The notes beneath the pieces were generated by a model. That model worked only from the letters and a program-made list of their open reading frames with translations, made no database searches and had not been told where the DNA came from. Shown in pieces: positions 1,318 to 25,220 of a stretch of DNA of 64,000 bases. Where the stretch lies: contig JBIQJB010000006.1 in the NCBI GenBank assembly GCA_044507735.1, forward strand, positions 1 to 64,000, written 5' to 3'. How positions within the stretch are numbered: the stretch's first letter is position 1; every line of letters starts with the position of its first letter. Made by a program: the position numbers and the translations under genes. Source of the stretch: Nitrosopumilales archaeon. GTDB lineage: Archaea; Thermoproteota; Nitrososphaeria; Nitrososphaerales; Nitrososphaeraceae.

Positions 1318-2280
1318 GTGCCAGAATGGGACATACGGGCAGTACTAGAAAAACTGGGAGTAGAGTTCCAGGCTGAGGGCAGCAACGCGAAGGTGCAGAG
1401 TGCCGCCCCGATAAATGAGGCTACAGAGAAGGACCTTGCGTTCTGCTGGTACGGGGGCGAAAAGGGTGCGTCTTATATCCAGGATTCAAAGGCCGGCGTA
1501 ATACTATGCAAGAGTGAAATGCAGGGCAGAGTCCATCCTAAAGGTAATAATCAGCTCCTCATATTTACCGAAAATCCTCGGCTTGCGTTCGTACGTACCA
1601 TGAAGGAAATGCATGGTGAAAAAAGGCTAGAGGGCATATCCCCGAAAGCGACAATATCTGACAAAGCAAAGATTGGGTCAGGATGCTATATCGGCGACTA
1701 TGTGGTGATTGGTGACAACTGCATCATTGGCGACAATACGGTTATCTACGACAGAGTATCGCTTGTGCAAAACTGCATCATTGGCAAGAACTGCGTCATC
1801 CAGTCTGGCGCCACATTGGGCTCTGATGGCTTTGCATTTGAACGCCACGACAATGGAGATTTGGAGAAGTTTCCTCACAAAGGATACGTGAAATTAGGTA
1901 ATAATGTCGAGATTTACGCCAATTGCTCCGTGGCGCGTGGATCACTTTCAGACACCATAATTGGCGACGGTACAAAACTCGATGCCTTGGTGCACATAGC
2001 GCACAATGTAGTTGTCGGTAAGAACTGCGAGCTTACCGCAGGCACAATCATTGGAGGGAGCACTACAATAGGCGACACGACTTGGACGGGTCTCAACTCC
2101 ACGCTAAAGAACAAGATCAGGGTAGGGAGCAATGTAATAGTAGCTTCAGGCGCATCTGTCATACATGACGTGCCGGATTGTGATATCGTCGCAGGAGTTC
2201 CTGCAAGGTCAATAAAACATAAGGTGAACACCGACGAGGTGTTTCTTATGGCTGGCCAGAAAAAGGCTTCAGAGGCTTAA
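1318..2280 (+). CDS. LpxD-like hexapeptide-repeat N-acyltransferase
   Basis: N-terminal uridine-binding-like domain (ENPRLAF), left-handed beta-helix repeats, GSDGFAF loop, KLDALVHIAHNV with the LpxD catalytic His, GVPAR end. Confidence 0.88.
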   Translation: MPEWDIRAVLEKLGVEFQAEGSNAKVQSAAPINEATEKDLAFCWYGGEKGASYIQDSKAGVILCKSEMQGRVHPKGNNQLLIFTENPRLAFVRTMKEMHGEKRLEGISPKATISDKAKIGSGCYIGDYVVIGDNCIIGDNTVIYDRVSLVQNCIIGKNCVIQSGATLGSDGFAFERHDNGDLEKFPHKGYVKLGNNVEIYANCSVARGSLSDTIIGDGTKLDALVHIAHNVVVGKNCELTAGTIIGGSTTIGDTTWTGLNSTLKNKIRVGSNVIVASGASVIHDVPDCDIVAGVPARSIKHKVNTDEVFLMAGQKKASEA

Positions 2281-2981
2281 GCGCTCACGGATTCGATTAC
2301 TTCTTTTGGCATGTCTTCTGAAGTAACCTTCGGGATATTTTCCTGGGGAACCTTTAGTAGCTTAAACTCTTTCCCAAAGCAGAGCTTAGCAACTTCAAAA
2401 GCCTCGACCCCCGTGACAGACGTATTGAGCCGGCTCTGGAGAGCTCTGTATTCTGCAAGCCCTCTTATTGCGTTTGATTTCAAGAACATCTTGCTTCTCT
2501 GAGACCAGAAGATGTTGATCAGTTCTATCTTGTCGTCTATGACGTCAGAGATGTCATAGTACACCTGTGGCTTGAAGTCTCGGGTAACGGGGATTTCATA
2601 TGCAAGGATGTTGGGGATGAACCTGCCTGCCTCTATAGTTGCCGCAGCGATCGCCCGGTGGTCATGATGTGTGTCGCCAATCGAATGTGTTAGCACTATG
2701 TCTGGATCGGACTTGTTGATGAAAAACTCGATGTGATTGATGAGGTCGTTGTTGAGAGAAACCTTTGTGTCCTCGAAATTGTCTATCCAAAGCCTTTTTG
2801 CTCCAATGAATTTCGCGGACTGCGTCAGTTCTTTTGTCCTTTCCTCAGGATTACCCGACGCCGCTCCTCTTGTCAGTGTATACATAAAGATGTTGTGACC
2901 CTGCCGGGCTGCCTTTAGCAGCATTCCCCCGCATCCAAGTTCAATGTCATCTGGGTGAGCTCCAATCGCGAGTATGTTCAT
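2277..2981 (-). CDS. PIG-L/LmbE family N-acetylhexosamine deacetylase
   Basis: AHPDDIE and HHDH zinc motifs, EAF C-terminal motif; start taken at MNILAIG. Confidence 0.92.
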   Translation of the reverse strand: MNILAIGAHPDDIELGCGGMLLKAARQGHNIFMYTLTRGAASGNPEERTKELTQSAKFIGAKRLWIDNFEDTKVSLNNDLINHIEFFINKSDPDIVLTHSIGDTHHDHRAIAAATIEAGRFIPNILAYEIPVTRDFKPQVYYDISDVIDDKIELINIFWSQRSKMFLKSNAIRGLAEYRALQSRLNTSVTGVEAFEVAKLCFGKEFKLLKVPQENIPKVTSEDMPKEVIESVSA

Positions 2982-3143
2982 CACGAACTGTGAACAGCAC
3001 ACTTATTTATCAAGTCCTGAGTCAGTCTCTGTCATATAATAATAGATGATTTCTCGCAGGATCTTGTAGGACCAAAGTCCAGAACATTTGTTTGTGGTTG
3101 TCAGGCGATTACTCTTAAATCTATTGAAATCGGTTCCCTCTTA

Positions 3144-3656
3144 TTGAAGATAGTAATAGCAATATTTGCATCCCTACTGTTGGTGATGACGATAATTTTA
3201 TCCGCAACAAGCTTTGCAAGAGCGCAATCGATCCCGCTTCCGCCTCCGTCACCCGAGAGCAGTGGTGAGGAGATAAAAAGAGCAGAGAACGACAGGACAC
3301 CTCCGCAGATAGAGATCCTGACTACAGAGCTCACAGCCGGTAAGAACGTCTTTCGCGTAAGAATAACGGATGATTCTAGCCTGCAGGTTAGGGAAGTGAA
3401 ATACGTCAGCAACGGTCAAATCAAGATCGACGGACTGTTCAGGGACCAAAATAACGTATACAAGGCCTTAGTTGACATACATCCACCGTCAAGAGTCGTA
3501 GTGGTCACAGCCAGCGACGTGAATGGCAACATGGCAACCACATTCAAAGAGTACGATGTCAAGGAGTCAAACGACTTCTTCGCTCAGATAATGAACATGT
3601 TTTCGCAGATTTCACGATACTTCCAGGACTTGTTGGGCACAATCGTTCCTACATAA
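3144..3656 (+). CDS. secreted hypothetical protein with Ig-like beta segment
   Basis: Signal peptide (ARA|Q), Pro-rich linker, DRTPPQI...TASDVNGN pattern common in Ig-like surface domains. Confidence 0.7.
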   Translation: MKIVIAIFASLLLVMTIILSATSFARAQSIPLPPPSPESSGEEIKRAENDRTPPQIEILTTELTAGKNVFRVRITDDSSLQVREVKYVSNGQIKIDGLFRDQNNVYKALVDIHPPSRVVVVTASDVNGNMATTFKEYDVKESNDFFAQIMNMFSQISRYFQDLLGTIVPT

Positions 3657-3804
3657 TATATAGCAGTTGTCAAGTGGCAGCCACTATACAAATTAGTGTA
3701 TTTTTCTATCCGAACTCATTAATACAAAAATCCCGCCTTGGGATACGGCAACATAAAAAATGTCTACCCTAGTGATGCGTAGAGGAAGGTGCGGATGATA
3801 ACAG

Positions 3805-5154
3805 ATGGCCGACAAAGGATGGATTTTGTTCTTTTTTGCCATAATGGCTTTGTGGGCTGTCGTGCTCACGTCAACGCTTTACCCGTACGTATATGGTACT
3901 GAAATTCTTGTTAACCGTGAAATTGATCTCACGTATTTCACATTGCCCATACTTGGGTTCAACTTGATCTATGTATTCATGCTCATCCTCATATTTGCCC
4001 TCTATCTTGGAACGTACGGCAGAGTGAGGAAATACCAGATACGGATGAAAAAGAATGCGACGGAAAGATTCCGGACACAGTCAGAGCTTTGCAGCATAAT
4101 AATTCCGGCAAGAAACGAAGAGAGCGTAATAAAGAGGACAGTCCTCAACTGCCTGCAACAGACATACCAGAACATCGAGGTAATAGTCGTGGCGCATAAC
4201 TGTTCTGACAGAACATTTGAAGAGGCAAAGGTCGAAGATCCTAGGGTCAAGGTTTTCAGGTTAGATACAAAAGAGGCTGGAAAGGGCATCGCTCTGAACT
4301 TTGCGGTATCAAAATCAACTGGCAACTACATACTGGTACTTGACAGTGACGGAATCTTGACCCGCGATTTTATCGAGAACGCTTTACCACTCTTTGATGA
4401 GAACTATGCAGCAGTGCAAGGCAGGTACATTGCAAGCAACAGGAGCTTTAACTTTGTGACTAGGATGCTTGCCCTCGAAGGCGATCTCTGGTCGACACCA
4501 TTCATGACTATAAGAAGTCACTTTGGACGACGCACTCCACTCGGCGGAACCGGATACATCGTGAGGAAAGACATCTTGACAAAGGTAGGCATGTTTGCAA
4601 ACCATTTGGTAGATGACTACGAGCTGACATTCAGGCTATTAAGGAACGGGTACCGTATCGCGTTTGCGCCACTGTCTGTTAATTATGACGAAAAGCCGCC
4701 CACACTCTCCTTTATGCTGAGACAGAGGGCAAGATGGGGCAAGGGCTTCATTGATCTTCTTAGCACACGAGTTGCAGAAGGCCCCGACATTATTGGCCAT
4801 ATTTACTGGCTCAACCCTCTTGCAGCGATCTGCGGGCTTATCATGCTAATGGTGCCGGCTTTTGCAGCCATCCACTACTTGATCTACGATTACTACCCAT
4901 ACACCTACGCATACATACCACTGAGCGTCTGGTTTGCGTTCACTGGAGTTCTGTTTGCCCTTCAGGCTGCAGTTTTGGTAAGGGAGTACGGGCGGCGCGG
5001 ATTGGTGTACGCGGCTCAGATACCGGCGCTTACCCCGTTTTCACACTACTGGTTCGTAAGCTTCATGAAAGCGTTCACGATCAAGTCATGGGCAAATACC
5101 AAGACGATGCACGGCTTCATGAAGGAAGCGAAGATGGTATCGGATGCATCTTGA
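3805..5154 (+). CDS. processive family 2 glycosyltransferase (cellulose synthase-like/PgaC-IcaA type)
   Basis: IIIPARNEE, GKGxALN, DSD, VDD and QRARW (D,D,D,QxxRW) motifs; two N-terminal and several C-terminal TM helices. Confidence 0.92.
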   Translation: MADKGWILFFFAIMALWAVVLTSTLYPYVYGTEILVNREIDLTYFTLPILGFNLIYVFMLILIFALYLGTYGRVRKYQIRMKKNATERFRTQSELCSIIIPARNEESVIKRTVLNCLQQTYQNIEVIVVAHNCSDRTFEEAKVEDPRVKVFRLDTKEAGKGIALNFAVSKSTGNYILVLDSDGILTRDFIENALPLFDENYAAVQGRYIASNRSFNFVTRMLALEGDLWSTPFMTIRSHFGRRTPLGGTGYIVRKDILTKVGMFANHLVDDYELTFRLLRNGYRIAFAPLSVNYDEKPPTLSFMLRQRARWGKGFIDLLSTRVAEGPDIIGHIYWLNPLAAICGLIMLMVPAFAAIHYLIYDYYPYTYAYIPLSVWFAFTGVLFALQAAVLVREYGRRGLVYAAQIPALTPFSHYWFVSFMKAFTIKSWANTKTMHGFMKEAKMVSDAS

Positions 5155-5203
5155 CTCTAACTCCATACCGCAGAAATATAATGAATACACTTAGGAAACT
5201 GGA

Positions 5204-6277
5204 ATGCAGGTAGAAAAGAATGTTGAGATACTAACGATTGCAGGGACTAGGCCCGAAATAATAAAGCTGTCAGAGCTGGTGCGGTTGCTGAACAAGGAAC
5301 GTGGCAGCAAACATGCCTTGTTGTACACAGGTCAGCACTTCTCAGGCAACATGAAAGACATATTCTTTGACGAGTTGGGCATAAAACCTGATTATGATCT
5401 TGGTTGTGACACGTCACAAGTCGATGCACTAAGAGAAAACATGATTCGTTTCATGAAGTCCACAAATCCCGAATATGTTCTGGTATACGGCGACACCAGC
5501 TCCAGCATGGCAGCAGCATTGACTGCAAAGGAAATCGGCAGCAAGCTAGTACATATCGAAGCAGGCATAAGGGACTTTGATTTGAATGTCCCCGAGGAAG
5601 TCATCAGAATACACATTGATGAGATATCAGATTATCTTTTTGCGCCATCCAAGTTATCCCAGACCTTCCTGGAGTATGAAGGAGTGAGAGGAGAGATTCA
5701 TGTAACAGGCAACCTGATAGTCGACGTGTGCAGAAAACTATCAAAAGAGGTCGAGCAATTCAGCAGGCGCGCCGAGCTGCCAAGTGAATTCTTGTTGCTG
5801 ACCATGCACAGGCAGGAAAATGTCGACGACCCGGCGAAGCTGGAGATGCTCAGAAAGCACCTAGAAGAAATAGCAGAATACAAGGTGGTCTTTCCAGTAC
5901 ATCCCCGGACAAGGAATAACCTGCACAAGTATAACATCAGACTGCCAGATAATGTCCTGACCATTGACCCTGTAGGGTATTTGGACTTTCTTTACTTACT
6001 GAAGAAATGTAGGCTTGTGTTGACCGATTCCGGAGGGGTGCAGGAAGAGGCGATCATTTTAGGGAAGCCCTGCATAACCCTTCGCCACAGCTCTGCGAGG
6101 TGGGAGACGATACTTCTCAAGGCCAACAGGCTATTCCCGCTAGACAGAAAGGATTCGCTCAACACCATCGTCAAAGAGATGCTTCCAACAAAGATAACAC
6201 ACAACCCATATGGTGAGAATGTCGCACAAAAAATGTTTGAGCTGATACACAAGACTATCGCGAGCGAAGGATCTTGA
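5204..6277 (+). CDS. wecB: UDP-N-acetylglucosamine 2-epimerase (non-hydrolysing)
   Basis: GTRPEIIK, TGQH, VYGDT, HIEAGIR, HRQEN, TDSGGVQEEA, NPYG motifs. Confidence 0.95.
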   Translation: MQVEKNVEILTIAGTRPEIIKLSELVRLLNKERGSKHALLYTGQHFSGNMKDIFFDELGIKPDYDLGCDTSQVDALRENMIRFMKSTNPEYVLVYGDTSSSMAAALTAKEIGSKLVHIEAGIRDFDLNVPEEVIRIHIDEISDYLFAPSKLSQTFLEYEGVRGEIHVTGNLIVDVCRKLSKEVEQFSRRAELPSEFLLLTMHRQENVDDPAKLEMLRKHLEEIAEYKVVFPVHPRTRNNLHKYNIRLPDNVLTIDPVGYLDFLYLLKKCRLVLTDSGGVQEEAIILGKPCITLRHSSARWETILLKANRLFPLDRKDSLNTIVKEMLPTKITHNPYGENVAQKMFELIHKTIASEGS

Positions 6278-6393
6278 CAGAATTTCTTTTAATATTATTT
6301 TTCTCTAGCACAGACCTACGAATCAGGTTATCCAGTCCAAACAAGTGGAGATACTGCATTAACTGTTAAATAATTTTTTACTATTCCATTACC

Positions 6394-8643
6394 GTGAATC
6401 ATAATTCGATATCCTTGGTGCTAGCCATCAGTCTTCTTGCCACACCATTTTCTATTGCGTTTGCGCAGCAGCAATTGCAGACTCAACTGTTTGGGTGCCA
6501 GCGTTATGGCGACTCGACCCATTGCGATCTTCTCCTGAACGACATGAAAGCCTACCAAACGACAGGCAACTCCACGCTGATACACACCCTCACGACAAGA
6601 GATACTGTCTTTGTAGATGGCAAGATCGGTCAGGCGGTTGAAATGCGCGGGCAATACAGGGAATCGATAGAAGTGATGAACACGCCCGAGCTCAATCCAA
6701 CACAATTTTCTATTTCATTTTGGCTCAAGCCTACGGTAATCGAGCCGTACGGACATGTTGTTTCTCACAGCAACAGGGCCCAGACTGCAGGATGGCAGTT
6801 TGACACTTTCAGCACAAGCGGTCCGGGCGGGACCCCGGTGTCGGTTCTGCGTTTTGGTATTTTCAATTCAAATGGAACGCTCTTTTCACCTGCGGATATT
6901 ATGCTTTCACGTGACAAAATGGTACATGTCACTGGAACATTTGACGGCGAGACTCTCAGGATCTATGAGGACGGAATCCTTGCCGGCGAGACAGAGTTCA
7001 GGGGAAGTTATGCAGCAGAGCCAGGAGTTCCTCTGCGCGTAGGCTCTGCCGCATATTGCTCCTCGTGCAACAGATGGTCGGGGGTATTGGATGACTTGCG
7101 CATGTATAACAGGACCCTGACCGCAGAAGAAGTCGCGCAGCTTGGCAAGATGGGAGATGTTTCTTCAGGCCTGGTTCTTCACTTGAAGTTTGACGGCAAC
7201 ACCCAAGACGCGCTTGGAAGGAATGGAGGCACCAGCACAACAATGCTTGGCAGCATGGCGTTTGCTCCAGACGGCAGGCTATTTTTCACTGAGAAAAATA
7301 CTGGTGCAATAAGGATAATGACACCCGATCATAGAGTCCTTGATGAACCATTTGCACAGGTGCAGGATGTCTTCGTAAGCTGGGAGCAAGGATTGCTTGG
7401 TATTGCAATCGATCCGGACTTTGAGAGTAACCACTATGTCTATGTCTACTATAGCGCCCTGGTCAATACGGAAAATGGCGAGAAGAACAAGGTGGTGAAT
7501 AGAGTTCTCAGGTTCACTGATAGTGACAACATAGGTACTGACATGAAGGTGCTAATGGATAACATCCCGGCGTCACAAGGTTTCCATTCCGGTGGCGCGA
7601 TGGCCTTTGGGCCAGATGGCAAACTGTATATCACAGTGGGAGATGCAACAGAACACATCTTTGCTCAGGACCCGTCCATACCGATCGGCAAAGTGCTACG
7701 AATAAACAAGGACGGTACGATCCCGGAAGACAACCCGTATGCAAACTTGCCGGTGTACACAGTCGGGCACCGTAACATGTATGGCATCGCATTTGACAAC
7801 ACCTCCGGAACAGGCCTTGTCACAGAAAATGGTGACTTCAGGTATGACGAAATAAACATCATCCAGAAAGGTGGAAACTACGGATTCCCAACGCTGCAGC
7901 CGCCGAACCTTCCCCCTGAACGTGGCGATGACGCATCAATCAAACCAATCCGAAGCTACTGGGACACCATAGCACCCACGAACATGATCTATTACACAGG
8001 TGACGCAGTGCCTGAACTTAAGGGCATGTTCCTCTTTGGAACTTTTACAGGCGACATTTATGCCCTGAAGCTAAGCGAGGACAACAAAAGAGTAGTGCAG
8101 GAGATAAAAGTCGATCTTGACCACTTTCCATTCGTCCCGACAGTAGGCATAGCCCAATCGCCTGATGGCAAGATCTACTACGGAGGATACCAGATATATA
8201 CACTTGATTCGATTGGCGAGATGAACCAAATGCTCTTCCCCATCTATATTGAAGCGCCTGATGAAGTCAACGTTGCAGAAGTAGGATTGGATGAGGCCAA
8301 GAAACAAGTGACTATAGACGCGAAAGTCGACGGAACCATTACACCCGACGCTACATTGACTGCAAGAATCCCAAAAGCCCTCATTGATAATGTTGCATCA
8401 GTAGCAAGAAGCGGACAGGGCGGAGGCAACATAGACTTTACGACGGACGATTCAAATGCCAACTTTACCGCAATAACGATCGATCTTGCATCAGCACTTT
8501 CTGACAATGATGACCTAAGATTATCCATTATTGGTACAACGACTGTCGTACCCGAGTTTCCATCTGCGACTGTAATTGTTGCTGTAGCAGTTGCAGCAAC
8601 AATTACAATGACCACATTAAGAATAAGAAAGAAGGGTTTGTAA
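6394..8643 (+). CDS. exported LamG-domain + PQQ-dependent sugar dehydrogenase (GSDH) with PEF-CTERM anchor
   Basis: Signal peptide; LamG-like segment (GKIGQA...FSISFW...LDDLRMYNRTLT); GSDH motifs EQGLLG, HSGG, FGPDGKLY, GHRN, DEIN, NYGFP; C-terminal VPEFP + hydrophobic helix + RIRKK. Confidence 0.88.
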   Translation: MNHNSISLVLAISLLATPFSIAFAQQQLQTQLFGCQRYGDSTHCDLLLNDMKAYQTTGNSTLIHTLTTRDTVFVDGKIGQAVEMRGQYRESIEVMNTPELNPTQFSISFWLKPTVIEPYGHVVSHSNRAQTAGWQFDTFSTSGPGGTPVSVLRFGIFNSNGTLFSPADIMLSRDKMVHVTGTFDGETLRIYEDGILAGETEFRGSYAAEPGVPLRVGSAAYCSSCNRWSGVLDDLRMYNRTLTAEEVAQLGKMGDVSSGLVLHLKFDGNTQDALGRNGGTSTTMLGSMAFAPDGRLFFTEKNTGAIRIMTPDHRVLDEPFAQVQDVFVSWEQGLLGIAIDPDFESNHYVYVYYSALVNTENGEKNKVVNRVLRFTDSDNIGTDMKVLMDNIPASQGFHSGGAMAFGPDGKLYITVGDATEHIFAQDPSIPIGKVLRINKDGTIPEDNPYANLPVYTVGHRNMYGIAFDNTSGTGLVTENGDFRYDEINIIQKGGNYGFPTLQPPNLPPERGDDASIKPIRSYWDTIAPTNMIYYTGDAVPELKGMFLFGTFTGDIYALKLSEDNKRVVQEIKVDLDHFPFVPTVGIAQSPDGKIYYGGYQIYTLDSIGEMNQMLFPIYIEAPDEVNVAEVGLDEAKKQVTIDAKVDGTITPDATLTARIPKALIDNVASVARSGQGGGNIDFTTDDSNANFTAITIDLASALSDNDDLRLSIIGTTTVVPEFPSATVIVAVAVAATITMTTLRIRKKGL

Positions 8644-8651
8644 AAAGAAAT

Positions 8652-10001
8652 CTATTGCGCCGGAACTATGCGATACAGATCACCTGTGTATGTGAGTACG
8701 TACAGATAACCATCTGGCCCAGTTTCTATATCACTTATGGCGCCAAAGCCCGTGCCAAACGTAACTGCGTCTGTTTCGTCGCTGTCGTCTGCCACCAAGT
8801 CTTCAAGTCCGCTGCCTACAAGTGCAAGACCATCCCTTGTTTCGTTGACAGTAAAGTAGTAGAGGTTACCGTTGTTAAAGTCGCCCACAAAGATGTTATA
8901 TGCATATGTTCCACCAAGCTTTGTAGAATTCAAGAATTCAATATCGGTTATGCCATGTGCTTCACTCCAGCTGAATACAGGGTCGGAATAGTGTGATCCT
9001 TCAAATTGAACCAGATCGTCGACGGTCTTCTCACTTCTTTCTATTGGTCCCATTATCTGCTCCCATCCGCTGTTGAGGCCCGGCTTGACCACGTTTATCT
9101 CATCGTAGCCCGTTGGCCCATTTTCCGTGTCCCACAGCACGCCCGTTAACGGATCAAAGTCTATCCCAAAGCTGTTTCGAATTCCGTATGCATAATATTT
9201 TGACATGTTTCCGGGCATCGGGTTATCCGCCGCGGCGTTGCCATTGACGTCAACCCTCAGGATTACAGATGTGTCATCTGGCTCACCAGCACCTGCAAAG
9301 TTCTGGAGGACTCCATTTCTGTTAAGATCGCCGATAACAGCATACAGCATGCCATCAGGTCCAATCGCCAACTTACCTCCGTCATGGTTGGGGCCGGGTT
9401 CTCCAGGAAGATCGAGCAATAGTGTTTCTCCAGTGAGATTGCCATACTTGTCCATATTATACTTGTAAATCCTGTTTCTTACTTCGTCATCAGAAGATTG
9501 GGTACAGTAGAGGAAAATCGTCCTTGTCCCATTCCCATTGTCTTGCACAGCCACACCAAGCATTCCTCGTTCGCTGTCGCTTTCAACAGTAGTCTCCAGC
9601 ACTGGTTCTTCCTGCAGCACGCCATTTGATACAAGGCGTACCATGCCATTTTTCTTTTCAAGGATCAAGATATCGTCAGGGCCGATGAATGTCATGCTAG
9701 TAGGAAGATCTAGCCCTTCGATGACTTTTTCGACCTTTAGTCCCGCATCGGAGATCTCTGGCAGATTCTCACTAGGAAGAACCGTGAACGTACCTTCCGC
9801 ACCGCCATTATTGGCACTACCAATACCATCAGTATTAGTATTGTTGCTCACATTGTTTTGTGCCGGTGCGACTTCGGTGCTGTTCGCGGGTTGTGGAGAA
9901 AAGGTGCCGTTGTTCAGTCTCACATAATTCAGCGAAATGGAAGCACCCACCACAATTGCAACAGCGATCATAGAAAAAACTGTCGCACGCATCCTGTCCA
10001 T
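8652..10001 (-). CDS. membrane-anchored PQQ-dependent sugar dehydrogenase (GSDH family)
   Basis: N-terminal TM/signal, Asn-rich linker, ERGMLG, HDGG, GPDGMLY, YGIRNSFG, TENGP, DEIN, GPDGYLY beta-propeller motifs. Confidence 0.9.
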   Translation of the reverse strand: MDRMRATVFSMIAVAIVVGASISLNYVRLNNGTFSPQPANSTEVAPAQNNVSNNTNTDGIGSANNGGAEGTFTVLPSENLPEISDAGLKVEKVIEGLDLPTSMTFIGPDDILILEKKNGMVRLVSNGVLQEEPVLETTVESDSERGMLGVAVQDNGNGTRTIFLYCTQSSDDEVRNRIYKYNMDKYGNLTGETLLLDLPGEPGPNHDGGKLAIGPDGMLYAVIGDLNRNGVLQNFAGAGEPDDTSVILRVDVNGNAAADNPMPGNMSKYYAYGIRNSFGIDFDPLTGVLWDTENGPTGYDEINVVKPGLNSGWEQIMGPIERSEKTVDDLVQFEGSHYSDPVFSWSEAHGITDIEFLNSTKLGGTYAYNIFVGDFNNGNLYYFTVNETRDGLALVGSGLEDLVADDSDETDAVTFGTGFGAISDIETGPDGYLYVLTYTGDLYRIVPAQ

Positions 10002-10104
10002 TCAGTGTGAATATTCGATTTCTCGTTATTATGTATTCTAGAGAACGATAGGGTAAGCAAAATATTATCCAAACTTCAAAAGAAAATGTATTCGACCTAC
10101 AGTA

Positions 10105-10479
10105 TTGTCTTACATAATACTTATTATGAAAAAATATGGAAGCGGCGTAATAATGACGCTTGATTCTGCCGCATCCTCCGCCAAGGTTGACAGGCAGTCT
10201 TTCTCTCCCTCCCGAGGGAAACGGATAACAATTGATAGCGTGCTTTACGTGCTCAGGATGGCTGATGACCCTGCCGGTGCGACTCTCAACAAGCTAGCCA
10301 GAAAAAGATATGGTAACTACAGGGATGCCTCAACGGTGATAAACAAGCTTGTTCACTGTGGAATGATAATCGAACGCATAACCCGGGATGAGCGCCAGAT
10401 ACCCCGGATTTCTTTTAAGATAACGGAGAAAGGTAAGTCTGCCCTGGATGTGTTTGAAGGTTGGCAGAACAATTACTAG
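10105..10479 (+). CDS. winged helix-turn-helix protein (probable regulator)
   Basis: LVHCGMI...FKITEKGK wing motif of archaeal HTH_45-type proteins; true start may be downstream. Confidence 0.7.
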   Translation: MSYIILIMKKYGSGVIMTLDSAASSAKVDRQSFSPSRGKRITIDSVLYVLRMADDPAGATLNKLARKRYGNYRDASTVINKLVHCGMIIERITRDERQIPRISFKITEKGKSALDVFEGWQNNY

Positions 10480-13079
10480 TCTGACATCGTACCGACAATG
10501 TCGACAGTGTTGCCACCAATGTAGGCAGCTCCGTCATATCGAACTCTACGTGTGTTACTGCCATCGACGACATCATCTGTAGTGCATTCGACATCCACCC
10601 TAGCTGGCCCGCTGTATTCTATGAGTATTTTGTCCCCTGCCTGTAGTGTGTGCGGCGTAGTTAGGTTGAATGTCCTGTCAGCATAGGAAGTCGGAAGCGA
10701 TGTCGCATCGAAAGTTTCGTTAAAGCTCGCAACGATCGCATCTGCAGAATTTCTCACAACTGCCCTTACCATCCCTGATGCAGAACCTGTCTTTCTAAGG
10801 CGCACCGTCCACGTTCTGAGCGACTTTCCGATCAAAACAGATGAAGCCCTGACTTCTTCGCCATACCTAGTGTTTGCGCCTGCATAAAGTGGACCGTTTG
10901 CCCCTCCAGGGCCCGGCACGTTATAGAACACGGCGCCGCTACCACCGTTACCACCTCCACCCATGCCGCCTCCGGACTTCATGACTCCCACCACATCATG
11001 GGTGCTCGCAGTTGCGTATGATGCTCCATCAAATCGAACTCTGCGTGTGTTGGCACCATCTATTTGATCCCTCGTCCACACAGAAAGTTCGATCCTGCCA
11101 GAACCGCCGAATTCTATCAGGATACGATCCCCTGACTGTATGACATACGGGGTAGCCAGCGTAAATGTGTGTTCGACAAAAGTGGTTGGAAGTGCAGACG
11201 CGTCGACGGTTTCGTTGAAAGTCGCCACAATAGCATCATCAGAGACTCTTCTAACGACTGCCCTTACCAGACCAGAAGCCGTCCCCACCCTCCTCAAGTG
11301 TAAACTCCAGCTAGCAAGCGACTTGCCCACTAGGACCGAAGAAGAGTTTGTGGCCTCTTCTCCGTACCGCGTGTTGCCTGTGCCAGAGAGCGGGCCTGTC
11401 GCGTCGCCAGGGTACGGTACATTGTAAAATACCTCGCCGGTGCCTCCGCCGCTTCCGCTGCCTCCACTGCCAGACCCAGGTATCCGGATAATTCGCGCAG
11501 TAGAAGGTATCCCCGTGTCATTCAGAATATGTATGTAGTAATAGCCGGGTGGCGCAAGGTTAGCATTGAGCGGCGCCTCAACAGTCACACTATTCGAAGT
11601 TCTGCTTTGAACATCGAGCATTATACACCTCATGTTGGGATCATAATGGTGCGTCGTGTTGGGCAGCCTTACTAGAGTGGCGCGTGCTATGACTGAAGCG
11701 TTCGGTGTCGGGATTGTAATAGAATTCCCATAGTCTCCTACATCCGGCGACCCCGAGATAGTGGGCCGCGTCGCATCAAAGTAGCTTGGCCTAAAAAATT
11801 CAGTTCTCAGTTCCCAGGTGTTTCTACTAGGTGTGCTTCCGGCAGTCCACACACTGCCGTCTGGTAAGAGCAATGATACCTGATGGTACACGCGCGGAAT
11901 GTTGGCTGTCGACAAGCTCGTCCAGCTTTCAGTCTCTGGATCAAACATCTCGGGAACTAGGCGGGGGTTGCTGTTGCCCTGAGCCGCGCCCCCGAAAACG
12001 ACAACTTTGCCGTCTGGCAGAATGACAGGAGCCAGGTATTTCCGCCCATATTGCAACGAATCAACGGTTCTTATCGAAGGATTGCCCGCGTTAAAATCCA
12101 GAATTTGGCATTCAGTGGTGGCGGGCTCTGCAGACCCTGGAGACCCTCCAACTAGTAGTATTTTCCCCTTTTCAGATGAAGTATTTTCAAGTGGAAGGAG
12201 CACGCTAGTCCCATAGTGTCTTTGGAATGGGGAGCTGAGTCCGAGAGTAGAAAACGCGCCGGTCGAGCGGTTCCACAGCCTAATGTCGTCTAGCATCCCC
12301 GCGACTACAATGTTCCCAGAAGGCATCAGGTGCATCCTGGGGTAGAGAGCAAGGTTTGGCGCGGCGCCGCTGTACGTTTGTTCACCCGCTCCCTCGCACA
12401 TACCCACCGCCGAAGTGCCTACGGTGTACGAGCTGCCGCCGCTTGGAACCTGGCGGATTGTCCACGTTCTTGAAGAAGAATCATAGATTTCAACCAATTT
12501 ATTGTGGTCGCCATACTCATCATAGCCCGCTGTAACCATGACATTACCATCTTGCATTGTTATGCAAGTTGGGTACCATCTGCCGTGCCTCATAGAGGCG
12601 ACTTTGGTAAGCGCTTCTGAAGACCAATCGAACTCGTATGCTGCGTTGAGTCCATGCCATCGACCGTTGCAGTTATCAGCTGCGATGTCATATCGCAAAG
12701 TACCGCCAGCTATCAATATGTTGCCATTTGGCAGATGTGTATGCCCGGCGCAAAATAGATCCTCAGGCATTTCAACATTTGACTCCGATCCGGTGACAGT
12801 ATCAAGAATTCTTGCTTCAAAAGGTCCTGTCTGGTGAGAGGCATGATAGCCAGAACCTGCAAAATAAAATATCTTTCCACTTGGAACCACTGCAGCATGT
12901 ATCGCCACAGTAGAAGTGTTGTTGCCGGAAACCCACGAGCCTGCACTCTGAGCCTCAACGCCTTTCACAACTGCGGCATTCTTGTTATTTAGAAAGCTGA
13001 AACCGGCGAGGCCGCCAAGAAAGAGGGCGCCTGCGCCTGCACCCATCAATTTCAAGAACTCACGCCGAGTTACTGTCAC
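10476..13079 (-). CDS. Tat-exported galactose/glyoxal oxidase-like copper radical oxidase (AA5) with two C-terminal repeat domains
   Basis: TRREFLK Tat motif; DLFCAG (Cys), RWYPT (Tyr), RVYHQ (Tyr/His) and TTHH (His) residues; Kelch repeats; APPGYY early-set domain. Confidence 0.92.
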   Translation of the reverse strand: MTVTRREFLKLMGAGAGALFLGGLAGFSFLNNKNAAVVKGVEAQSAGSWVSGNNTSTVAIHAAVVPSGKIFYFAGSGYHASHQTGPFEARILDTVTGSESNVEMPEDLFCAGHTHLPNGNILIAGGTLRYDIAADNCNGRWHGLNAAYEFDWSSEALTKVASMRHGRWYPTCITMQDGNVMVTAGYDEYGDHNKLVEIYDSSSRTWTIRQVPSGGSSYTVGTSAVGMCEGAGEQTYSGAAPNLALYPRMHLMPSGNIVVAGMLDDIRLWNRSTGAFSTLGLSSPFQRHYGTSVLLPLENTSSEKGKILLVGGSPGSAEPATTECQILDFNAGNPSIRTVDSLQYGRKYLAPVILPDGKVVVFGGAAQGNSNPRLVPEMFDPETESWTSLSTANIPRVYHQVSLLLPDGSVWTAGSTPSRNTWELRTEFFRPSYFDATRPTISGSPDVGDYGNSITIPTPNASVIARATLVRLPNTTHHYDPNMRCIMLDVQSRTSNSVTVEAPLNANLAPPGYYYIHILNDTGIPSTARIIRIPGSGSGGSGSGGGTGEVFYNVPYPGDATGPLSGTGNTRYGEEATNSSSVLVGKSLASWSLHLRRVGTASGLVRAVVRRVSDDAIVATFNETVDASALPTTFVEHTFTLATPYVIQSGDRILIEFGGSGRIELSVWTRDQIDGANTRRVRFDGASYATASTHDVVGVMKSGGGMGGGGNGGSGAVFYNVPGPGGANGPLYAGANTRYGEEVRASSVLIGKSLRTWTVRLRKTGSASGMVRAVVRNSADAIVASFNETFDATSLPTSYADRTFNLTTPHTLQAGDKILIEYSGPARVDVECTTDDVVDGSNTRRVRYDGAAYIGGNTVDIVGTMSD
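10479..11432 (-). repeat. tandem ~150-aa domain duplication at the C-terminus of the oxidase
   Basis: Units ~10980-11432 and ~10479-10931 share FYNVPxPG, NTRYGEE, SSVLxGKSL, SGxVRAVVR, FNETxDAxxLPT, GDxILIE, DGxNTRRVRxDG, DxVGxM; joined by Gly-rich linkers. Confidence 0.9.
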
Positions 13080-13211
13080 AACAATATCGAACGCATTTGG
13101 TATAAAAGAGGTACGAAAACTACTGATCTAGAGTTTGGACCGAGTTCAATTTTTACAATCCGATATTATGTGCGTCAATTTCTATTTTTGACTAACCAAT
13201 AAATACAAAGT

Positions 13212-14432
13212 TTGGAACTGTACATCGCCGTGAAGATCCCTCCAGTCATTCTCTCTATTTCTCTTGTCGCAGTTTTAGCGGGTTGTCTAATCATGGCATC
13301 TCCTTACCCCATCATCGACAGCATTATTCCAAATCAGATCGGCAACGACAATGAAGTTCAAGCGCAGCAGGCGGAAGCACAGACACTCCCGCTTGTAATT
13401 AGAGATCGCTTCACACAAAAACTTATGGCAGGTGATGCCGCTGCCGCGGGATCACGTTTTTTCAAAGTTGACGAAAACTTTGTAGATCCCGAGAACCACT
13501 GCGAATTCTGCACTAGAGTGGAATATACACCAGGATCAAGAGGAATTGCCGGGTTTGCCTATCAAGATTTGACAGGGCTTGACCTTTCGAACGCCAAAAA
13601 GGCGCAATTCTGGGTAATGGGCGAAGAAGGAGATGAGAAAATCAGGTTCAAGCTTGCAGGCAAGGCCCTAGATAGGATCCAAGACAGAGTTCAGCAGAGG
13701 CTTGGACAGTTGTCAGATAGGCTTGCATCAGAGGGGATCTTTACGACAGAGCGTTTTGCGCTGACGACGCAAGAAGTAACCCTTAACGACGTTTGGAAAA
13801 AGTATGAGGTTGATCTGACAGGAGTTGACCTAAGAGGGATCACTCATCCTTTTGCTTTTGAGCTCTCAGGGAATGGAAACGAAAGAGAGGTCATATACAT
13901 CAAAGGCGTTGTGTATGACGACGAGCCTGCTGAAGATCCACTTGCAACAGTTACAGAAGAAGCAGTGGCCGATCCACTAACAGTAGAGGTTATTTCGAAT
14001 GGCACAGAAGGAGTTGCCCCTGCAATCTTTGAATTTGAAGCCCGTATCGCAGGAGGCACAGAACCTTACTCTATCAGTTGGGACTTTGACGATAACAAAC
14101 CTAGCCAAGAAGAAGGTCGAAATACTGTGCATACCTTTGAAGAAGCCGGCGAATACAATGTAACGCTCACAGTTACCGACGCAGGGAGCCAGAAGATGTC
14201 AAACAGCATCGCAATACACGTAGCAGAATCTGAGACGATTGAAGAAGGAGAGGAGACTGCAGAAGGAGGAGCAAATGACGACACTTTTGTAGCTGCAAAC
14301 ACGACAGATGCGGAAGTGAATTCTCTGCCCTCAGAAGAGACCCCTGACGTGCAGAATACCACAGAAGTTGTATCCTCTGAACCAGAAGGTACAGACGTAA
14401 AAGGGCCCGCTGCTAACGAAAACGGTGATTAA
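13212..14432 (+). CDS. membrane-anchored carbohydrate-binding-module-like + PKD domain protein
   Basis: N-terminal TM; DLSNAKKAQFW...TLNDVWKKYEVDL...IYIKGV (CBM11/galactose-binding-like pattern); PKD motif WDFDD...HTFEEAGEYNVTLTVTD; acidic tail. Confidence 0.75.
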   Translation: MELYIAVKIPPVILSISLVAVLAGCLIMASPYPIIDSIIPNQIGNDNEVQAQQAEAQTLPLVIRDRFTQKLMAGDAAAAGSRFFKVDENFVDPENHCEFCTRVEYTPGSRGIAGFAYQDLTGLDLSNAKKAQFWVMGEEGDEKIRFKLAGKALDRIQDRVQQRLGQLSDRLASEGIFTTERFALTTQEVTLNDVWKKYEVDLTGVDLRGITHPFAFELSGNGNEREVIYIKGVVYDDEPAEDPLATVTEEAVADPLTVEVISNGTEGVAPAIFEFEARIAGGTEPYSISWDFDDNKPSQEEGRNTVHTFEEAGEYNVTLTVTDAGSQKMSNSIAIHVAESETIEEGEETAEGGANDDTFVAANTTDAEVNSLPSEETPDVQNTTEVVSSEPEGTDVKGPAANENGD

Positions 14433-18775: not shown

Positions 18776-19633
18776 TTACATCAGATTTTCCACGATCTCG
18801 TACATTTTGGTGTACGACTGCTGCAGGTCCTGCCACTTTTGCAGTCTTGATTTGACCTTCGATAGATCAGCCTTCAACTTGGTGCTGTCCTTTGAGGAGG
18901 CCATTTTGGATACGGCAGTCGCTTCCTTCAGATATTGTCGGATGAATTTCTTAGCATACGGATTTTCCTGTATCAGCGCTACAACCAGATCGGGTTCGCT
19001 TGTAAGGATGCTTTCTGCAACGAGCGACTGCAGCGCAAACGTAGTGCCAGCCACCTGCTTTAGAGTAGAAACATTTCCGGACGACACTACTTTGGCAAAG
19101 ACGATGTTTACAAAGTATGTTACCCCAAGCACAGTTGCGACAGAGGTGTCATGAGCTCTTGCAGTAGGCAGCACTCTAACTGTGGAATTTTCGAATATCT
19201 CGTGAACCATCCTTATCTCATCATCTTCATTTCTGACCGGCACAAGCAATATCTTCGGTCGCATTTTCTCAGTTGCACCTGGCCCAAACATTGGATGTAT
19301 GCAAAGCGGTCGGACATTGTCAGTAACCCTCTTCAGTGCGCGGAATGTCTGGTGCTTCACAGATGATATTTCAGAAATGACGGCGCCAGCCTTCATGCTT
19401 CTTGCACATTCAGCTATTGTTCTGGGAGCCACCCGTACCGGCACTGAAACGAGAACCAAGTCAGCATCTCTGACGCAGTCGGCGATGCTTCTTGCAATGT
19501 GGACATGATCTGAGGCTTTCAACGATTTCCTATTGACATCAAAAGCCGAAACCTGTACGCCGCGGCGTGCAAAATAGGTGGTGAACCAAGAACCCATCTT
19601 CCCTGCTGCACCAATGATCGCTACTTGCTGCAT
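18776..19633 (-). CDS. tyrA: prephenate/arogenate dehydrogenase
   Basis: IIGAAGKMG Rossmann motif, EISSVK, HPMFGP, HD motif; last gene of the aro cluster. Confidence 0.92.
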   Translation of the reverse strand: MQQVAIIGAAGKMGSWFTTYFARRGVQVSAFDVNRKSLKASDHVHIARSIADCVRDADLVLVSVPVRVAPRTIAECARSMKAGAVISEISSVKHQTFRALKRVTDNVRPLCIHPMFGPGATEKMRPKILLVPVRNEDDEIRMVHEIFENSTVRVLPTARAHDTSVATVLGVTYFVNIVFAKVVSSGNVSTLKQVAGTTFALQSLVAESILTSEPDLVVALIQENPYAKKFIRQYLKEATAVSKMASSKDSTKLKADLSKVKSRLQKWQDLQQSYTKMYEIVENLM

Positions 19634-19634
19634 C

Positions 19635-21017
19635 TCAGGCGTTCTCCCCTATCGTTGACGCCATTATATCTAGCCCTTTCCCAAGAACCTCTTCGGGTTG
19701 GCAGGCGGATATCCTCACGAACTGTCTATAAGAGTCTCCAAATCCGCTACCCGGTGCAATTGCCACCCCTTTTTCCAACAGCCTTTCTACCAGGGAAATG
19801 TCATCTCCCCTTGGCAGCGCGGGGTACACGTACATTGCGCCGTCTGGCTCGACAAATTGAAGTGACATTTGCTTGAGCTTTGAAGACACAAAGTCGAGCC
19901 TCTTTTTCATAGTCCTGACATTTTCTGAAGGATCCTGACCAAGGGCGGCAAGTGCTGCATATTGCACGGGTTCAGCGACGCTGGTTATTCCCACCGCTTG
20001 CACTTTTGCCATCTTGGTAATGATGTCCTTGCCAGCGACAGCATAGCCGACCCGAAAACCAGTCATCGCGTAGCGCTTCGAAAACGAGGACACCAATATG
20101 CTCTTTGCATATCCGTATTCATGTATGCTTGTAAACTTCTTGAAAGTATAGTCGGCATATACTTCGTCGCTTAGCACGTAAAGGTCGTTGTCCTTGGCGA
20201 TGGATACTATTCTCTCCATCGTTCTTTCGTCCAAAACCTTGCCTGTTGGGTTGTTTGGATAGTTGAGCACAATCATCTTGGTGCTCTGGTTTATCACAGC
20301 CTCAAGTTGGCTCAGATCAGGAGTCCATTTGTTCTCAATGGTTGTCCTCAGGGTTCTTGTCCTAGCACCAACAAAGTCCGCACACTCCTTGTATGCAGGC
20401 CAGGCCGGCTCGATGGTGATGAGCTCCTGCCCAGGTTTCAAGAGCGAGGTGATTGCGCTGAAAACAGCAAAGCGGCCACCCGGTGTGACTATTATCTGGT
20501 CTTCTGGAACATATTCTTTCCTAGCTATTGCTTCGCGGAGTTTTGGGACGCCGCGTGTATCGGTATAATGATACTGCTTTTGCCTGAATGAAGCGATAAG
20601 TGACTCGCCGACTGCCTCCGGCGGCGCGTAGTCAGGCTCGCCCACCTCCATGTGGATTATCCTTCTTCCGGATGCTTCAAGCTGCTTGGCTTTCATGAAT
20701 ATTGAAAGGTGCGTCTGCGTCGGCGACTTTTTTTGCTGTCTGTTCTGTGCCTGTAACCTCTCCGATTCTGTCAGCAAGAGATTCAGCAACTGCAGCGCAA
20801 ATTCTCTGCCCATCCCTATCTCGTCTGCAAGCGTTAGTACCATAGTACGTATTTCGCTTTCGACCTTCTCATCTTTGACGTCAATTCCAAGTCTGTCCTT
20901 TATTTCGCCGATCTGTTTTGCCAGTGTCATTCGCTGGTTGACATTACGCATTATCTGGGCCGTTACATCGCGGACCTGATACCGCAGCATTTCCAGATCA
21001 TCGTTTCTGCCCATCAT
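19635..21017 (-). CDS. chorismate mutase (AroQ) - class I/II aminotransferase fusion
   Basis: N-terminal LR...R..LA.QIG.IK...D..E AroQ pattern; GEPD, NYPNNPTG, SDEVY, SFSKRYAMTGFRVG PLP-lysine motif. Confidence 0.9.
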   Translation of the reverse strand: MMGRNDDLEMLRYQVRDVTAQIMRNVNQRMTLAKQIGEIKDRLGIDVKDEKVESEIRTMVLTLADEIGMGREFALQLLNLLLTESERLQAQNRQQKKSPTQTHLSIFMKAKQLEASGRRIIHMEVGEPDYAPPEAVGESLIASFRQKQYHYTDTRGVPKLREAIARKEYVPEDQIIVTPGGRFAVFSAITSLLKPGQELITIEPAWPAYKECADFVGARTRTLRTTIENKWTPDLSQLEAVINQSTKMIVLNYPNNPTGKVLDERTMERIVSIAKDNDLYVLSDEVYADYTFKKFTSIHEYGYAKSILVSSFSKRYAMTGFRVGYAVAGKDIITKMAKVQAVGITSVAEPVQYAALAALGQDPSENVRTMKKRLDFVSSKLKQMSLQFVEPDGAMYVYPALPRGDDISLVERLLEKGVAIAPGSGFGDSYRQFVRISACQPEEVLGKGLDIMASTIGENA

Positions 21018-21027
21018 TATTTCACCG

Positions 21028-22122
21028 TCACTTGAGCACCGGCGGTATCAGGCCAGCCCGAATGGCGTGGTCGGCCAGAACCATAGAAACTATGCACTCG
21101 ACAACGGGCGGTGCTCTTGGGACTACGCATGGGTCATGTCTTCCAGGGACTGAAAGGTTGGTCTGTGATTTCTTTACTATATCGAGAGTTTCCTGTGTTT
21201 TCGCTATGGAAGCTGCTGGTTTGAAGGCGACCCTGATGACAAGTGGCATACCATTTGAAAGGCCGCCAAGTATCCCGCCAGCATTGTTGGTCTTGGTAAC
21301 CACCTTGCCATCCTCTATCGCATAAGCATCGTTATTTTCGGAGCCACGCTTCCTGCTGCCAGCAAAGCCAGACCCGAATTCGACTCCCTTCACTGCAGGT
21401 ATACTAAAGAGCGCCTTTGAAAGATCCGATTCAAGTGATGCAAAAATGGGCTCCCCAAGCCCGACAGGGAGGCTGCTGGTAGTACATTCAACAACACCGC
21501 CAAGTGAGTCTCCATCCTTTCTGGCCTGAAGTATTGCATCCCTCATTCTTTCAGCGGCAACTGGATCGGGGCACCGTACGTCGTTGTCGTATCTTTTGGC
21601 AATGTTGGCCGATGTGATGTTACCTGCCTTGACATTTCCAATTTCGGTAGTGTAAGCCACAGTTTCAATTCCAAGCGTATTTTTCAAAAGCTTGGCCGCC
21701 ACAGCTCCGGCCATTACAAGCGTCGCAGTAAGCCTGCCAGAGAACCTGCCTCCGCCGCGATAATCCACGAAGCCGCCATACTTTACCATGGCGGGATAGT
21801 CAGCGTGACCCGGTCTCGGGATGTTTCTTATTGCTTCATATGCACGTGAGTCAGAATCTTTATTCCATATCAACATACAGATAGGAGCGCCTGTTGTAAA
21901 GCCATTAAAGATACCGGAAATTATCTCGACCTTGTCCTCTTCCTTTCGCTGAGTAGTGACTACTGATTGACCGGGTTTTCTCAAGTCCAATAGACCTTGG
22001 ATGTCTGATTCGCTCAGAGGTAGGCCTGCAGGACAGCCATCGACTACTATGCCAACACACCTTCCATGGCTCTCTCCAAAGCTCATGGCGACAAAACGCT
22101 CGCCTATTATGCTGCCGCCCAT
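21028..22122 (-). CDS. aroC: chorismate synthase
   Basis: FGESHG, RPGHAD, RGGGRFSGR, GDSLGG, GRHDPC; start at MGGSIIG. Confidence 0.97.
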   Translation of the reverse strand: MGGSIIGERFVAMSFGESHGRCVGIVVDGCPAGLPLSESDIQGLLDLRKPGQSVVTTQRKEEDKVEIISGIFNGFTTGAPICMLIWNKDSDSRAYEAIRNIPRPGHADYPAMVKYGGFVDYRGGGRFSGRLTATLVMAGAVAAKLLKNTLGIETVAYTTEIGNVKAGNITSANIAKRYDNDVRCPDPVAAERMRDAILQARKDGDSLGGVVECTTSSLPVGLGEPIFASLESDLSKALFSIPAVKGVEFGSGFAGSRKRGSENNDAYAIEDGKVVTKTNNAGGILGGLSNGMPLVIRVAFKPAASIAKTQETLDIVKKSQTNLSVPGRHDPCVVPRAPPVVECIVSMVLADHAIRAGLIPPVLK

Positions 22123-22180
22123 ATCTCTAGTAGATGCAGGTTTAGTCTGTTCTATATAAAGTGCTTTTGGAGAGTGACCA

Positions 22181-25183: not shown

Positions 25184-25212
25184 TTGCCTAGGCGCGAATA
25201 TCAGCACCTGCC

Positions 25213-25220
25213 ATATATAA
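25213..25220 (-). promoter_or_regulatory. TATA box for aroE
   Basis: TTATATAT on the minus strand, 30-37 nt upstream of the aroE ATG. Confidence 0.6.

Follow-up and report, generated by a model that had tools for sequence, protein, structure and literature searches.

A candidate synthase-dependent surface-glycan gene cluster of Nitrososphaeraceae with an optional copper radical oxidase module

In the available part of the published account, the cslA and glxA genes of Streptomyces are described as coupled and both required, and the product of the complex as cellulose; CslA is bound by GlxA residues 12-261 but not by the anchor alone, Domain 2 comprising residues 143-260 (PMC11022532). A second related system is the N4 glycan receptor (NGR) of E. 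coli, a proposed surface glycan of N-acetylmannosamine (ManNAc) for which, in the part of the report consulted, a glycosyltransferase and WecB are required (PMC8669472). The locus analysed here is a block of ten genes at positions 1318..14432 of a 64,000-nt stretch of archaeal DNA (hereafter the window; contig JBIQJB010000006.1, positions 1 to 64,000), which an earlier note, made from the letters of the window alone, had likened to CslA-GlxA. The ten genes are not one unit. A core, consisting of a glycosyltransferase of family 2 (GT2), a small Ig-like protein, WecB, a LamG-GSDH protein, an LpxD-like acyltransferase and a PIG-L deacetylase, recurs across the family Nitrososphaeraceae. The favoured explanation, to which a probability of roughly 0.55 is assigned, is a synthase-dependent surface polysaccharide or exopolysaccharide system of this family, with a core, shared tailoring genes and an optional module of an AA5 oxidase and a carbohydrate-binding module (CBM) protein. 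By analogy, E. coli NGR is a better precedent for the core than CslA-GlxA.

Orthologues of the GT2 were found in 66 of 238 genomes of the family and in 11 of 18 genera, a count that takes in four genomes flagged as unpublished (G022, G025, G071, G072). An even draw of 401 genomes from the phylum gave two matches of orthologue grade, both from this family; the next tier consisted of two genomes at 263-270 bits. Co-occurrence was tabulated for the 119 genomes that are at least 90% complete, one of them flagged as unpublished (G186), with WecB orthologues defined by a score of at least 330 bits and a weaker 36-45% tier set aside. GT2 and WecB are both present in 33 of these genomes and both missing from 80, with two genomes carrying only GT2 and four only WecB. 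The surface-glycan locus proposed in the earlier note is thus borne out as a conserved one, in which GT2 and WecB are closely linked. For GT2 and the LpxD-like gene, the corresponding numbers are 29 (both), 55 (neither), 6 (GT2 only) and 29 (LpxD-like only). As the latter gene is present in 58 of the 119 genomes, 29 of them without GT2, it is regarded as a shared tailoring gene.

The gene neighborhood was analysed up to 10.5 kb from GT2 in 35 loci of the source genus and 20 loci of other genera; many contigs end early, and all counts are therefore lower bounds. Beside GT2, the Ig-like gene is found in at least 30 and 15 loci, respectively, WecB in at least 31 and 14, LamG-GSDH in at least 25 and 12, the LpxD-like gene in at least 26 and 4, PIG-L in at least 27 and 4, a second GSDH gene in at least 16 and 1, and AA5 in at least 3 and 2. 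Within the genus the order is fixed (LpxD-like, PIG-L, Ig, GT2, WecB, LamG-GSDH, GSDH). In other genera the cluster genes remain together in reshuffled order and are joined by genes for GH26, right-handed beta-helix, 3-keto-disaccharide-hydrolase-like and Vgb-like proteins. The synteny of GT2, WecB, AA5 and GSDH that had been suggested for checking holds for GT2, WecB and LamG-GSDH; AA5 is optional and the second GSDH probably does not belong to the set.

All ten open reading frames (ORFs) were recovered within 1318..14432, with families mostly as previously named. They are flanked on the left by the genes for ribosomal protein S26e and archaetidylinositol-phosphate (AIP) synthase, and on the right by those for a class II aldolase and ATP synthase subunit F (atpF). 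The strands follow the order + - + + + + - + - +, convergent pairs overlapping by 4 nt (LpxD-like/PIG-L and wHTH/AA5) and divergent ones being separated by 103-141 nt; because of this alternation, the block is considered a cluster and not an operon. Its GC content (0.43-0.54) matches the rest of the window. In the source genome, which is 97% complete, the LpxD-like, Ig, GT2 orthologue, AA5 and CBM genes occur once each, whereas there are six paralogues of GSDH. The nearest GT2 homologues carry the label Nitrososphaera sp. TATA-like words lie about 27-37 nt upstream of the PIG-L, Ig, LamG-GSDH and AA5 starts; they lack a shuffle control and were not used.

The GT2 (3805..5154, + strand; 449 aa; PF13641/PF00535) carries the motifs H131-N-C, D180-x-D182, D270-D271 and Q307RARW311, followed by a C-terminal SW..TK loop. 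The motif series given in the earlier note, D,D,D,QRARW, has to be corrected to H,D,D,QRARW, the canonical first Asp being replaced by His131 in 66 of 66 aligned rows. The DxD, D270/D271, QxxRW, the acidic finger-helix residues and the C-terminal loop are conserved across the alignment. The catalytic domain is flanked on both sides by membrane helices, two at the N-terminus and two or more at the C-terminus, with four strong hydrophobic segments in all. None of the curated GT2 family models passes its cut-off for this protein. In a fold search with the predicted model (predicted local distance difference test, pLDDT, 88.7), hyaluronan synthases occupy most top ranks and the mannosyltransferase PcManGT and BcsA also match, at TM-scores of 0.5-0.63; a membrane-embedded fold of the synthase type is supported by the model. 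The His131-Asn132 pair is encoded at positions 4195-4200 of the window, and more distant relatives (P0130-P0190) show HN or NN there. This wider HN/NN subfamily has a C-terminal SW..TKT.H loop, and some members end in a carboxypeptidase-regulatory-like domain. One relative of 638 aa (P0121) has an N-terminal extension that lacks a Pfam match and, by eye, is not the Ig protein.

Next to GT2 lies the gene for a small secreted or membrane-anchored protein of 170 aa (3144..3656, + strand). The gene reported as a secreted Ig-like protein is real, and the Ig fold itself is a lead from the Atlas (0.83), the protein having no Pfam match. A complex prediction with GT2 reached a mark of 0.54, compared with 0.00 for the best control, which is weak support: in the calibration, 18 of 157 solved complexes passed with a mark of 0.60 or less, and 2 of 215 mismatched pairs passed, both at 0.60 or less. 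Contact agreement between runs was at least 38% and the pLDDT of the partner at least 68. The odds that the Ig-like protein is an accessory subunit of the synthase are put at about even.

Downstream of GT2, the WecB gene (5204..6277, + strand) encodes a non-hydrolysing UDP-GlcNAc 2-epimerase that scores 269 on TIGR00236 (cut-off 210) and 52 on the NeuC model (cut-off 236). Members of the WecB family convert UDP-GlcNAc to UDP-ManNAc. Its assignment as the core partner of GT2 is supported by the co-occurrence of the two genes, and a surface glycan made by the cluster would probably contain ManNAc. The LpxD-like protein (1318..2280, + strand) is a left-handed beta-helix acyltransferase with an N-terminal UDP-binding domain. 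In common with the LpxD of lipid A synthesis it has these two domains, a GFAF motif and the IAHN His, and its His229 is conserved in 34 of 34 sequences. It passes PRK00892 (242 bits, cut-off 207) but falls below the LpxD equivalog TIGR01853 (220, cut-off 242.5), and its C-terminus is short; to our knowledge, the archaeal host has no lipid A. The PIG-L/LmbE-family de-N-acetylase (2277..3002, - strand; PF02585), whose gene overlaps the LpxD-like stop by 4 nt, has its HPDD (16-19) and HHDH (112-115) motifs conserved in 31 of 31 sequences. No hydrophobic segment was found in this protein, which is predicted to be cytoplasmic.

With the NfrB-NfrA/WecB pathway of E. coli, the core shares the dependence of a surface glycan on UDP-ManNAc made by WecB. 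It differs in that the window GT2 reaches 24.6 bits on PRK14716, which we take to be the NfrB-like model, against 409, that an outer-membrane export protein is missing, and that a dedicated WecB lies inside the cluster together with acyl-tailoring and redox-fold genes. PgaCD/IcaAD and hyaluronan synthases likewise combine a compact GT2, few membrane helices and QxxRW with a small partner and a de-N-acetylase in the locus, PgaD and IcaD being the small partner proteins of PgaC and IcaA. Unlike PgaCD/IcaAD, however, the window GT2 scores 92 bits on TIGR03937 (against 422) and carries His where the first Asp would be expected; its locus encodes a cytoplasmic PIG-L as deacetylase instead of an exported CE4 enzyme, and the partner is Ig-like.

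The last core gene encodes an exported LamG and GSDH-type beta-propeller protein (6394..8643, + strand; PF13385 at residues 96-248, PF07995 at 287-595) with a C-terminal PEF motif and a membrane helix. A second exported GSDH-type propeller (8652..10001, - strand) lies next to it. Both keep the six-bladed GSDH fold and the H-x-G-G and RN motifs of the soluble pyrroloquinoline quinone (PQQ) glucose/aldose dehydrogenases (3a9g, 2ism, 2g8s, 1c9u). In LamG-GSDH, His398 is conserved in 33 and Arg460 in 34 of 36 sequences; in the second GSDH the catalytic His and RN motif correspond to H206 and R275. The last-blade RxR (RIRDV/RLREV in the solved enzymes), in contrast, is aligned to VPTVGI and AISDI in the two window proteins, and Arg is not among the common residues at these positions in the LamG-GSDH alignment. 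The equivalents of Arg406 and Arg408 presumably hold the PQQ. Both residues are given as conserved pocket residues of PQQ enzymes in the available part of PMC1781467. The RxR is also missing from three further paralogues for which the motif region was printed, and models for PqqC and PqqE stay far under their cut-offs in the 97%-complete genome. As the motif is missing from both proteins and the PqqC and PqqE models remain below cut-off, 'PQQ dehydrogenase' is unproven and serves as a fold label; of the earlier description of two GSDH-type PQQ dehydrogenases, the fold was retained. Six GSDH-family paralogues are present in G000 (contigs C29, C52, C3, C45, C40), and the five with a printed last blade all lack RxR; from sequence, the paralogues of this lineage possibly have a different cofactor or function. 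LamG-GSDH is listed as a core gene with an uncertain cofactor. The second GSDH is found between AIP synthase and the aldolase/atpF flank in five of five GT2-less genomes examined (L146-L150, three closed). Because it is kept at the site in genomes without GT2, it is considered a resident of the site and a bystander, probably not part of the glycan cassette. The proposal of three oxidoreductases acting on the glycan thus lost one member to the site, and neither GSDH has the full motif.

The AA5 copper radical oxidase (10476..13079, - strand) comprises a twin-arginine signal, a catalytic propeller, an E-set domain and two jelly-roll tail repeats (10971-11441 and 10479-10937, - strand). AA5 enzymes oxidise alcohols or aldehydes, releasing H2O2; a dye-decolorising peroxidase (DyP) or Mn catalase was not found in the G000 genome, haem catalases lying outside this search, although AA5 would release H2O2. 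The best match in the PDB is GlxA (4unm, E 2.8e-55), with which C110, W168, Y169, Y398, H399 and H477 align; they are kept in 47-49 of 49 rows. In GlxA, these positions presumably correspond to the Cys-Tyr cofactor, the Tyr/His/His copper ligands and the Trp beside the Tyr. Judged by motif and hydropathy, the protein has a TRREFLK twin-arginine motif and no segment above 1.6 hydropathy. The tail repeats are 58% alike and have a predicted CBM/lectin-like jelly-roll fold. Structural matches include a phage baseplate (Z 13.2), a viral capsid protein (11.8) and the Cwp84 lectin-like domain (11.7), followed by CBMs at Z 8-9, and no family name could be assigned from them. The first repeat of the tail (~155 aa) has no NCBIfam match, and no Pfam match to the tail was found within the full protein. 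Many other exported proteins in the genus carry tails of this type (L017-L022, L126, L138, L143), with 13 matches in G009.

Divergently transcribed from AA5 is the gene for its partner, an exported CBM/PKD protein with a galactose-binding-like domain, PKD and an acidic tail (13212..14432, + strand). The N-terminal domain matches CBM30/galactose-binding-like clusters in the Atlas at 0.95, and the PKD domain was found. A CBM gene lies within 3.5 kb of 29 of 63 AA5 copies, and 34 of 35 CBM homologues lie within 3.5 kb of an AA5, a proportion biased by the choice of loci around AA5 or GT2. The small winged-helix (wHTH) regulator (10105..10479, + strand; weak PF14277 match, under cut-off) travels with the cassette and AA5 (L031, L032, L033, L082, L107, L115-L117). 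Its true start probably lies later, as most orthologues have 100-111 aa.

A quick tree of AA5 was built from 69 rows (64 archaeal, 5 bacterial), five archaeal fragments shorter than 380 aa having been excluded. The window AA5 falls into a clade of 30 rows that includes the GT2-adjacent copies (SH-like approximate likelihood ratio test, SH-aLRT, 95). Nineteen of the 21 genomes with this clade carry GT2, compared with 7 of the 20 genomes that hold the other strong clades. AA5 occupies the same site in six further GT2 genomes (G005, G081, G031, G085, G092, G013), four of which have it on a different contig from GT2 and WecB. In two other genera its distance from GT2 is about 10 kb or less (L155, L170; G204 contig C79). 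In L082, wHTH and CBM are kept and AA5 is gone. AA5-bearing genomes are found on both main branches of the GT2 tree, which fits ancestral presence with repeated loss; AA5 thus appears to be ancestral in the cluster. The data support AA5 as an accessory, optional module with a real link to GT2; the association with the synthase that had been proposed holds, but not as an obligate one. An additional AA5 of the window clade lies beyond S26e in G092 (L081:10945-12570), and G066 and G074 hold several copies. AA5 proteins of about 1,690 aa with long extensions occur in G201 (L200, L201). A separate, distant AA5-like clade (31% identity; L140:8693, L045:9001, L141:9608) has TruD and a Cas4-like nuclease as neighbours, in a conserved housekeeping setting.

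Compared with CslA-GlxA, the window likewise has a GT2 synthase near an AA5 with Cys-Tyr cofactor, copper ligands and adjacent Trp. The Streptomyces genes, however, form one operon, whereas GT2 (+) and AA5 (-) in the window are 5.3 kb apart with four genes between them. GlxA is membrane-anchored with Domain 2; the window AA5 has a Tat signal, two jelly-roll tails and no Domain 2, as profile positions 145-260 are unmatched and only 65-144 and 261-645 match. Both genes are needed in Streptomyces, AA5 is optional here, and the dedicated precursor gene here is WecB. The GT2 scores 48 bits on the cellulose synthase model TIGR03030 (cut-off 699) and so falls outside the CslA/BcsA family, a separation made by the family model and not by a CslA sequence. 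No GlxA was found in the control genomes examined. Because the genes form no operon, AA5 is missing from most GT2 genomes and Domain 2 is absent, the window is not regarded as a member of the CslA-GlxA system, and the resemblance at the system level was abandoned. By analogy, it is still plausible that the oxidase acts on the product of the synthase.

Published data come from a Nitrosocosmicus cluster whose likeness to the window rests on annotation, not on sequence. In the available part of PMC12448741 (supplementary file 3), the consecutive genes NFRAN_0782-0790 are all expressed; their annotations are GT2, hypothetical, glycosyl hydrolase, WecB, Vgb-like, hypothetical, LpxD-like and PQQ-type dehydrogenase, and the log2 fold changes in biofilm are, in this order, -0.56, -1.03, -0.09, -0.60, +0.66, +0.71, +0.14 and -0.19. 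The part of the main text available states that the proposed extracellular polymeric substance (EPS) genes are not differentially expressed, and the term 'Galactose oxidase' occurs 0 times in eight files of this publication. The flat or slightly lower expression of the similar cluster argues against the biofilm-specific role that had been envisaged and suits a constitutive coat. In the consulted part of PMC11559005, cryo-tomography of two strains of Nitrosocosmicus showed filaments of about 30 nm, which were suggested to be a glycocalyx of amino sugars whose composition is not known. The available parts of PMC11131427 and PMC11561398 mention GT2/GT4 and EPS genes in general terms only. In a compost RNA run (share 0.20), 10 short contigs touch the LpxD-like/PIG-L, GT2 and second GSDH genes; as contigs from a polyA library show neither level nor strand and may be DNA, no conclusion on expression of the window was drawn.

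AA5 genes also occur at other archaeal glycan loci. Pel-like loci (L039:9529-19451, L040:1055-10123, L037:8116-13218, L132:8886-16424) contain AA5, a 240-aa gene, a PelF-type GT4, a 555-aa gene and spherulin-4 (Pfam), two of them also PIG-L and LpxD-like genes. The AA5 of loci with PelF-type GT4 and spherulin-4 form a clade of 5 rows (support 100), with PelF in the flank of four; the L132 copy of PelF scores 137.6 on NF038011 (cut-off 100). A third locus type (L035, L036, L133, L139, L144) combines a GT2 of 550-680 aa, PIG-L and an NAD-dependent epimerase with a polysaccharide deacetylase, a PMT-like transferase, and its own AA5 clade and CBM. The AA5 clade beside the second GT2/PIG-L locus type has 4 rows (support 99). 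A literature search, with subscription journals mostly outside its coverage, returned no entry that describes the cluster or an archaeal AA5, and none that deals with pel in archaea of this kind. Elsewhere in the window, ordinary shikimate/aromatic and purine biosynthesis genes were recognised by eye from ORF translations (18776-31382 and 56493-60876), and at 45793-49769, by eye only, a glycogen-debranching-like protein adjoins a mannosyl-3-phosphoglycerate-synthase-like gene.

Several observations weigh against a synthase-dependent polysaccharide system with an oxidase module. The ten genes form at least six separately oriented units. The co-occurrence counts ignore kinship, the genomes being related and not independent. 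Of 35 genomes with GT2, 6 lack the LpxD-like gene, and a further 29 genomes carry that gene but no GT2. His in place of the first Asp in every orthologue means that donor binding by GT2 is non-canonical; its best PDB sequence matches are non-processive GT2 domains, and the non-processive PcManGT (6yv7) ranks 2-3 in the fold search. For AA5, the clade hangs on a short branch of a quick tree and is found in only 19 of 66 GT2 genomes. Among the 14 genus loci in which a single contig runs from GT2 to the atpF flank, 13 lack AA5, and 11 of these 13 belong to one group of close relatives with weak support (0.535). In G066 and G074 (72% and 80% complete) the AA5 clade is present and GT2, WecB and LamG-GSDH were not found. 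The PcManGT rank is also what a single-transfer GT2 would predict, one making a lipid-linked amino sugar (a polyprenyl-phosphate sugar or glycosylated archaetidylinositol) that PIG-L and the LpxD-like protein re-acylate for S-layer glycosylation or a glycolipid coat. The cluster abuts the AIP synthase gene in the source genus, and eukaryotic PIG-L de-N-acetylates GlcNAc-phosphatidylinositol (Pfam description). The QRARW and C-terminal loop are nevertheless of synthase type, hyaluronan synthases take most of the top fold ranks, and polymer-acting genes (GH26, beta-helix) accompany the cluster. It is not beside AIP synthase in the 20 other-genus loci; since the adjacency is confined to the source genus, a link resembling glycosylphosphatidylinositol (GPI) is kept as a rival, and this explanation as a whole is clearly improbable.

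A further possibility accepts the glycan core and treats AA5, CBM and the GSDHs as unrelated surface enzymes at an insertion hotspot, oxidising external sugars, alcohols or aldehydes for scavenging or detoxification. Unrelated inserts such as a histidine kinase with a response regulator do occupy the site in GT2-less genomes (L147, L148), the fetched flanks of many AA5 copies contain no glycan gene, and five of five bacterial plasmid AA5 loci, including a Streptomyces one, have no annotated synthase or glycosyltransferase alongside. It is nonetheless quite unlikely: AA5 lies by GT2 in three genera with differing gene orders, separate AA5 clades sit beside the PelF-like and second GT2/PIG-L locus types, and the lectin-like tails and CBM partner point to a polymer substrate. 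The opposite extreme, an archaeal CslA-GlxA analogue with synthase and copper oxidase as obligate partners and three exported oxidoreductases cross-linking a biofilm matrix, could draw on GlxA as the best match, the conserved Trp-Tyr pair, an AA5 subclade nested in GT2 genomes and three exported redox-fold proteins adjacent in the source genome. It is highly improbable in view of the missing operon, a score of 267.5 bits on the GlxA model NF052501 (cut-off 800), the lack of Domain 2 when CslA binding needs GlxA 12-261 (available part of PMC11022532), 47 of 66 GT2 genomes without the window AA5 clade, a second GSDH that occurs without the cassette, and a similar published cluster that is not induced in biofilm.

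In the favoured synthase-dependent system, WecB would supply UDP-ManNAc from UDP-GlcNAc, and the membrane GT2 would, somewhat more probably than not, polymerise a chain of ManNAc or another N-acetylhexosamine (HexNAc) and export it via its own membrane helices, perhaps assisted by the Ig-like protein as accessory subunit. The surface-anchored LamG-GSDH may bind or modify the chain, its use of PQQ being doubtful. PIG-L and the LpxD-like protein would strip acyl groups from sugar precursors in the cytoplasm and attach others, an exchange of N-acyl groups being a tentative suggestion; the pair also serves other glycan loci. The Tat-exported AA5, with its lectin-like tails and CBM partner, could convert hydroxyl groups of the completed polymer into aldehydes or acids, at odds slightly short of even; the second GSDH would be a bystander. 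Aldehyde-amine cross-linking, as envisaged in the earlier note, would be a conjectural further step. A fuller picture is unlikely to hold in all its parts: the hair-like amino-sugar coat of soil ammonia oxidisers made by a lineage-specific His-variant GT2 with Ig subunit polymerising ManNAc, re-acylation by PIG-L and LpxD-like proteins, and AA5 clades each tuned to their own polymer (GT2/WecB, Pel-like and second GT2 types).

If true, archaea in general would mature their own polysaccharides by oxidation, a strategy that arose independently of Streptomyces. The analysis also points to an unstudied archaeal AA5 clade and to archaeal Pel-like loci. Its value lies in testability, its basis being gene content, motifs, folds and co-occurrence. 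Going by the available part of PMC12448741, genes of the same types appear to be present and expressed in a cultured strain. Nitrososphaeraceae are major soil nitrifiers, and the cluster offers a specific, testable candidate pathway for their outer coat.

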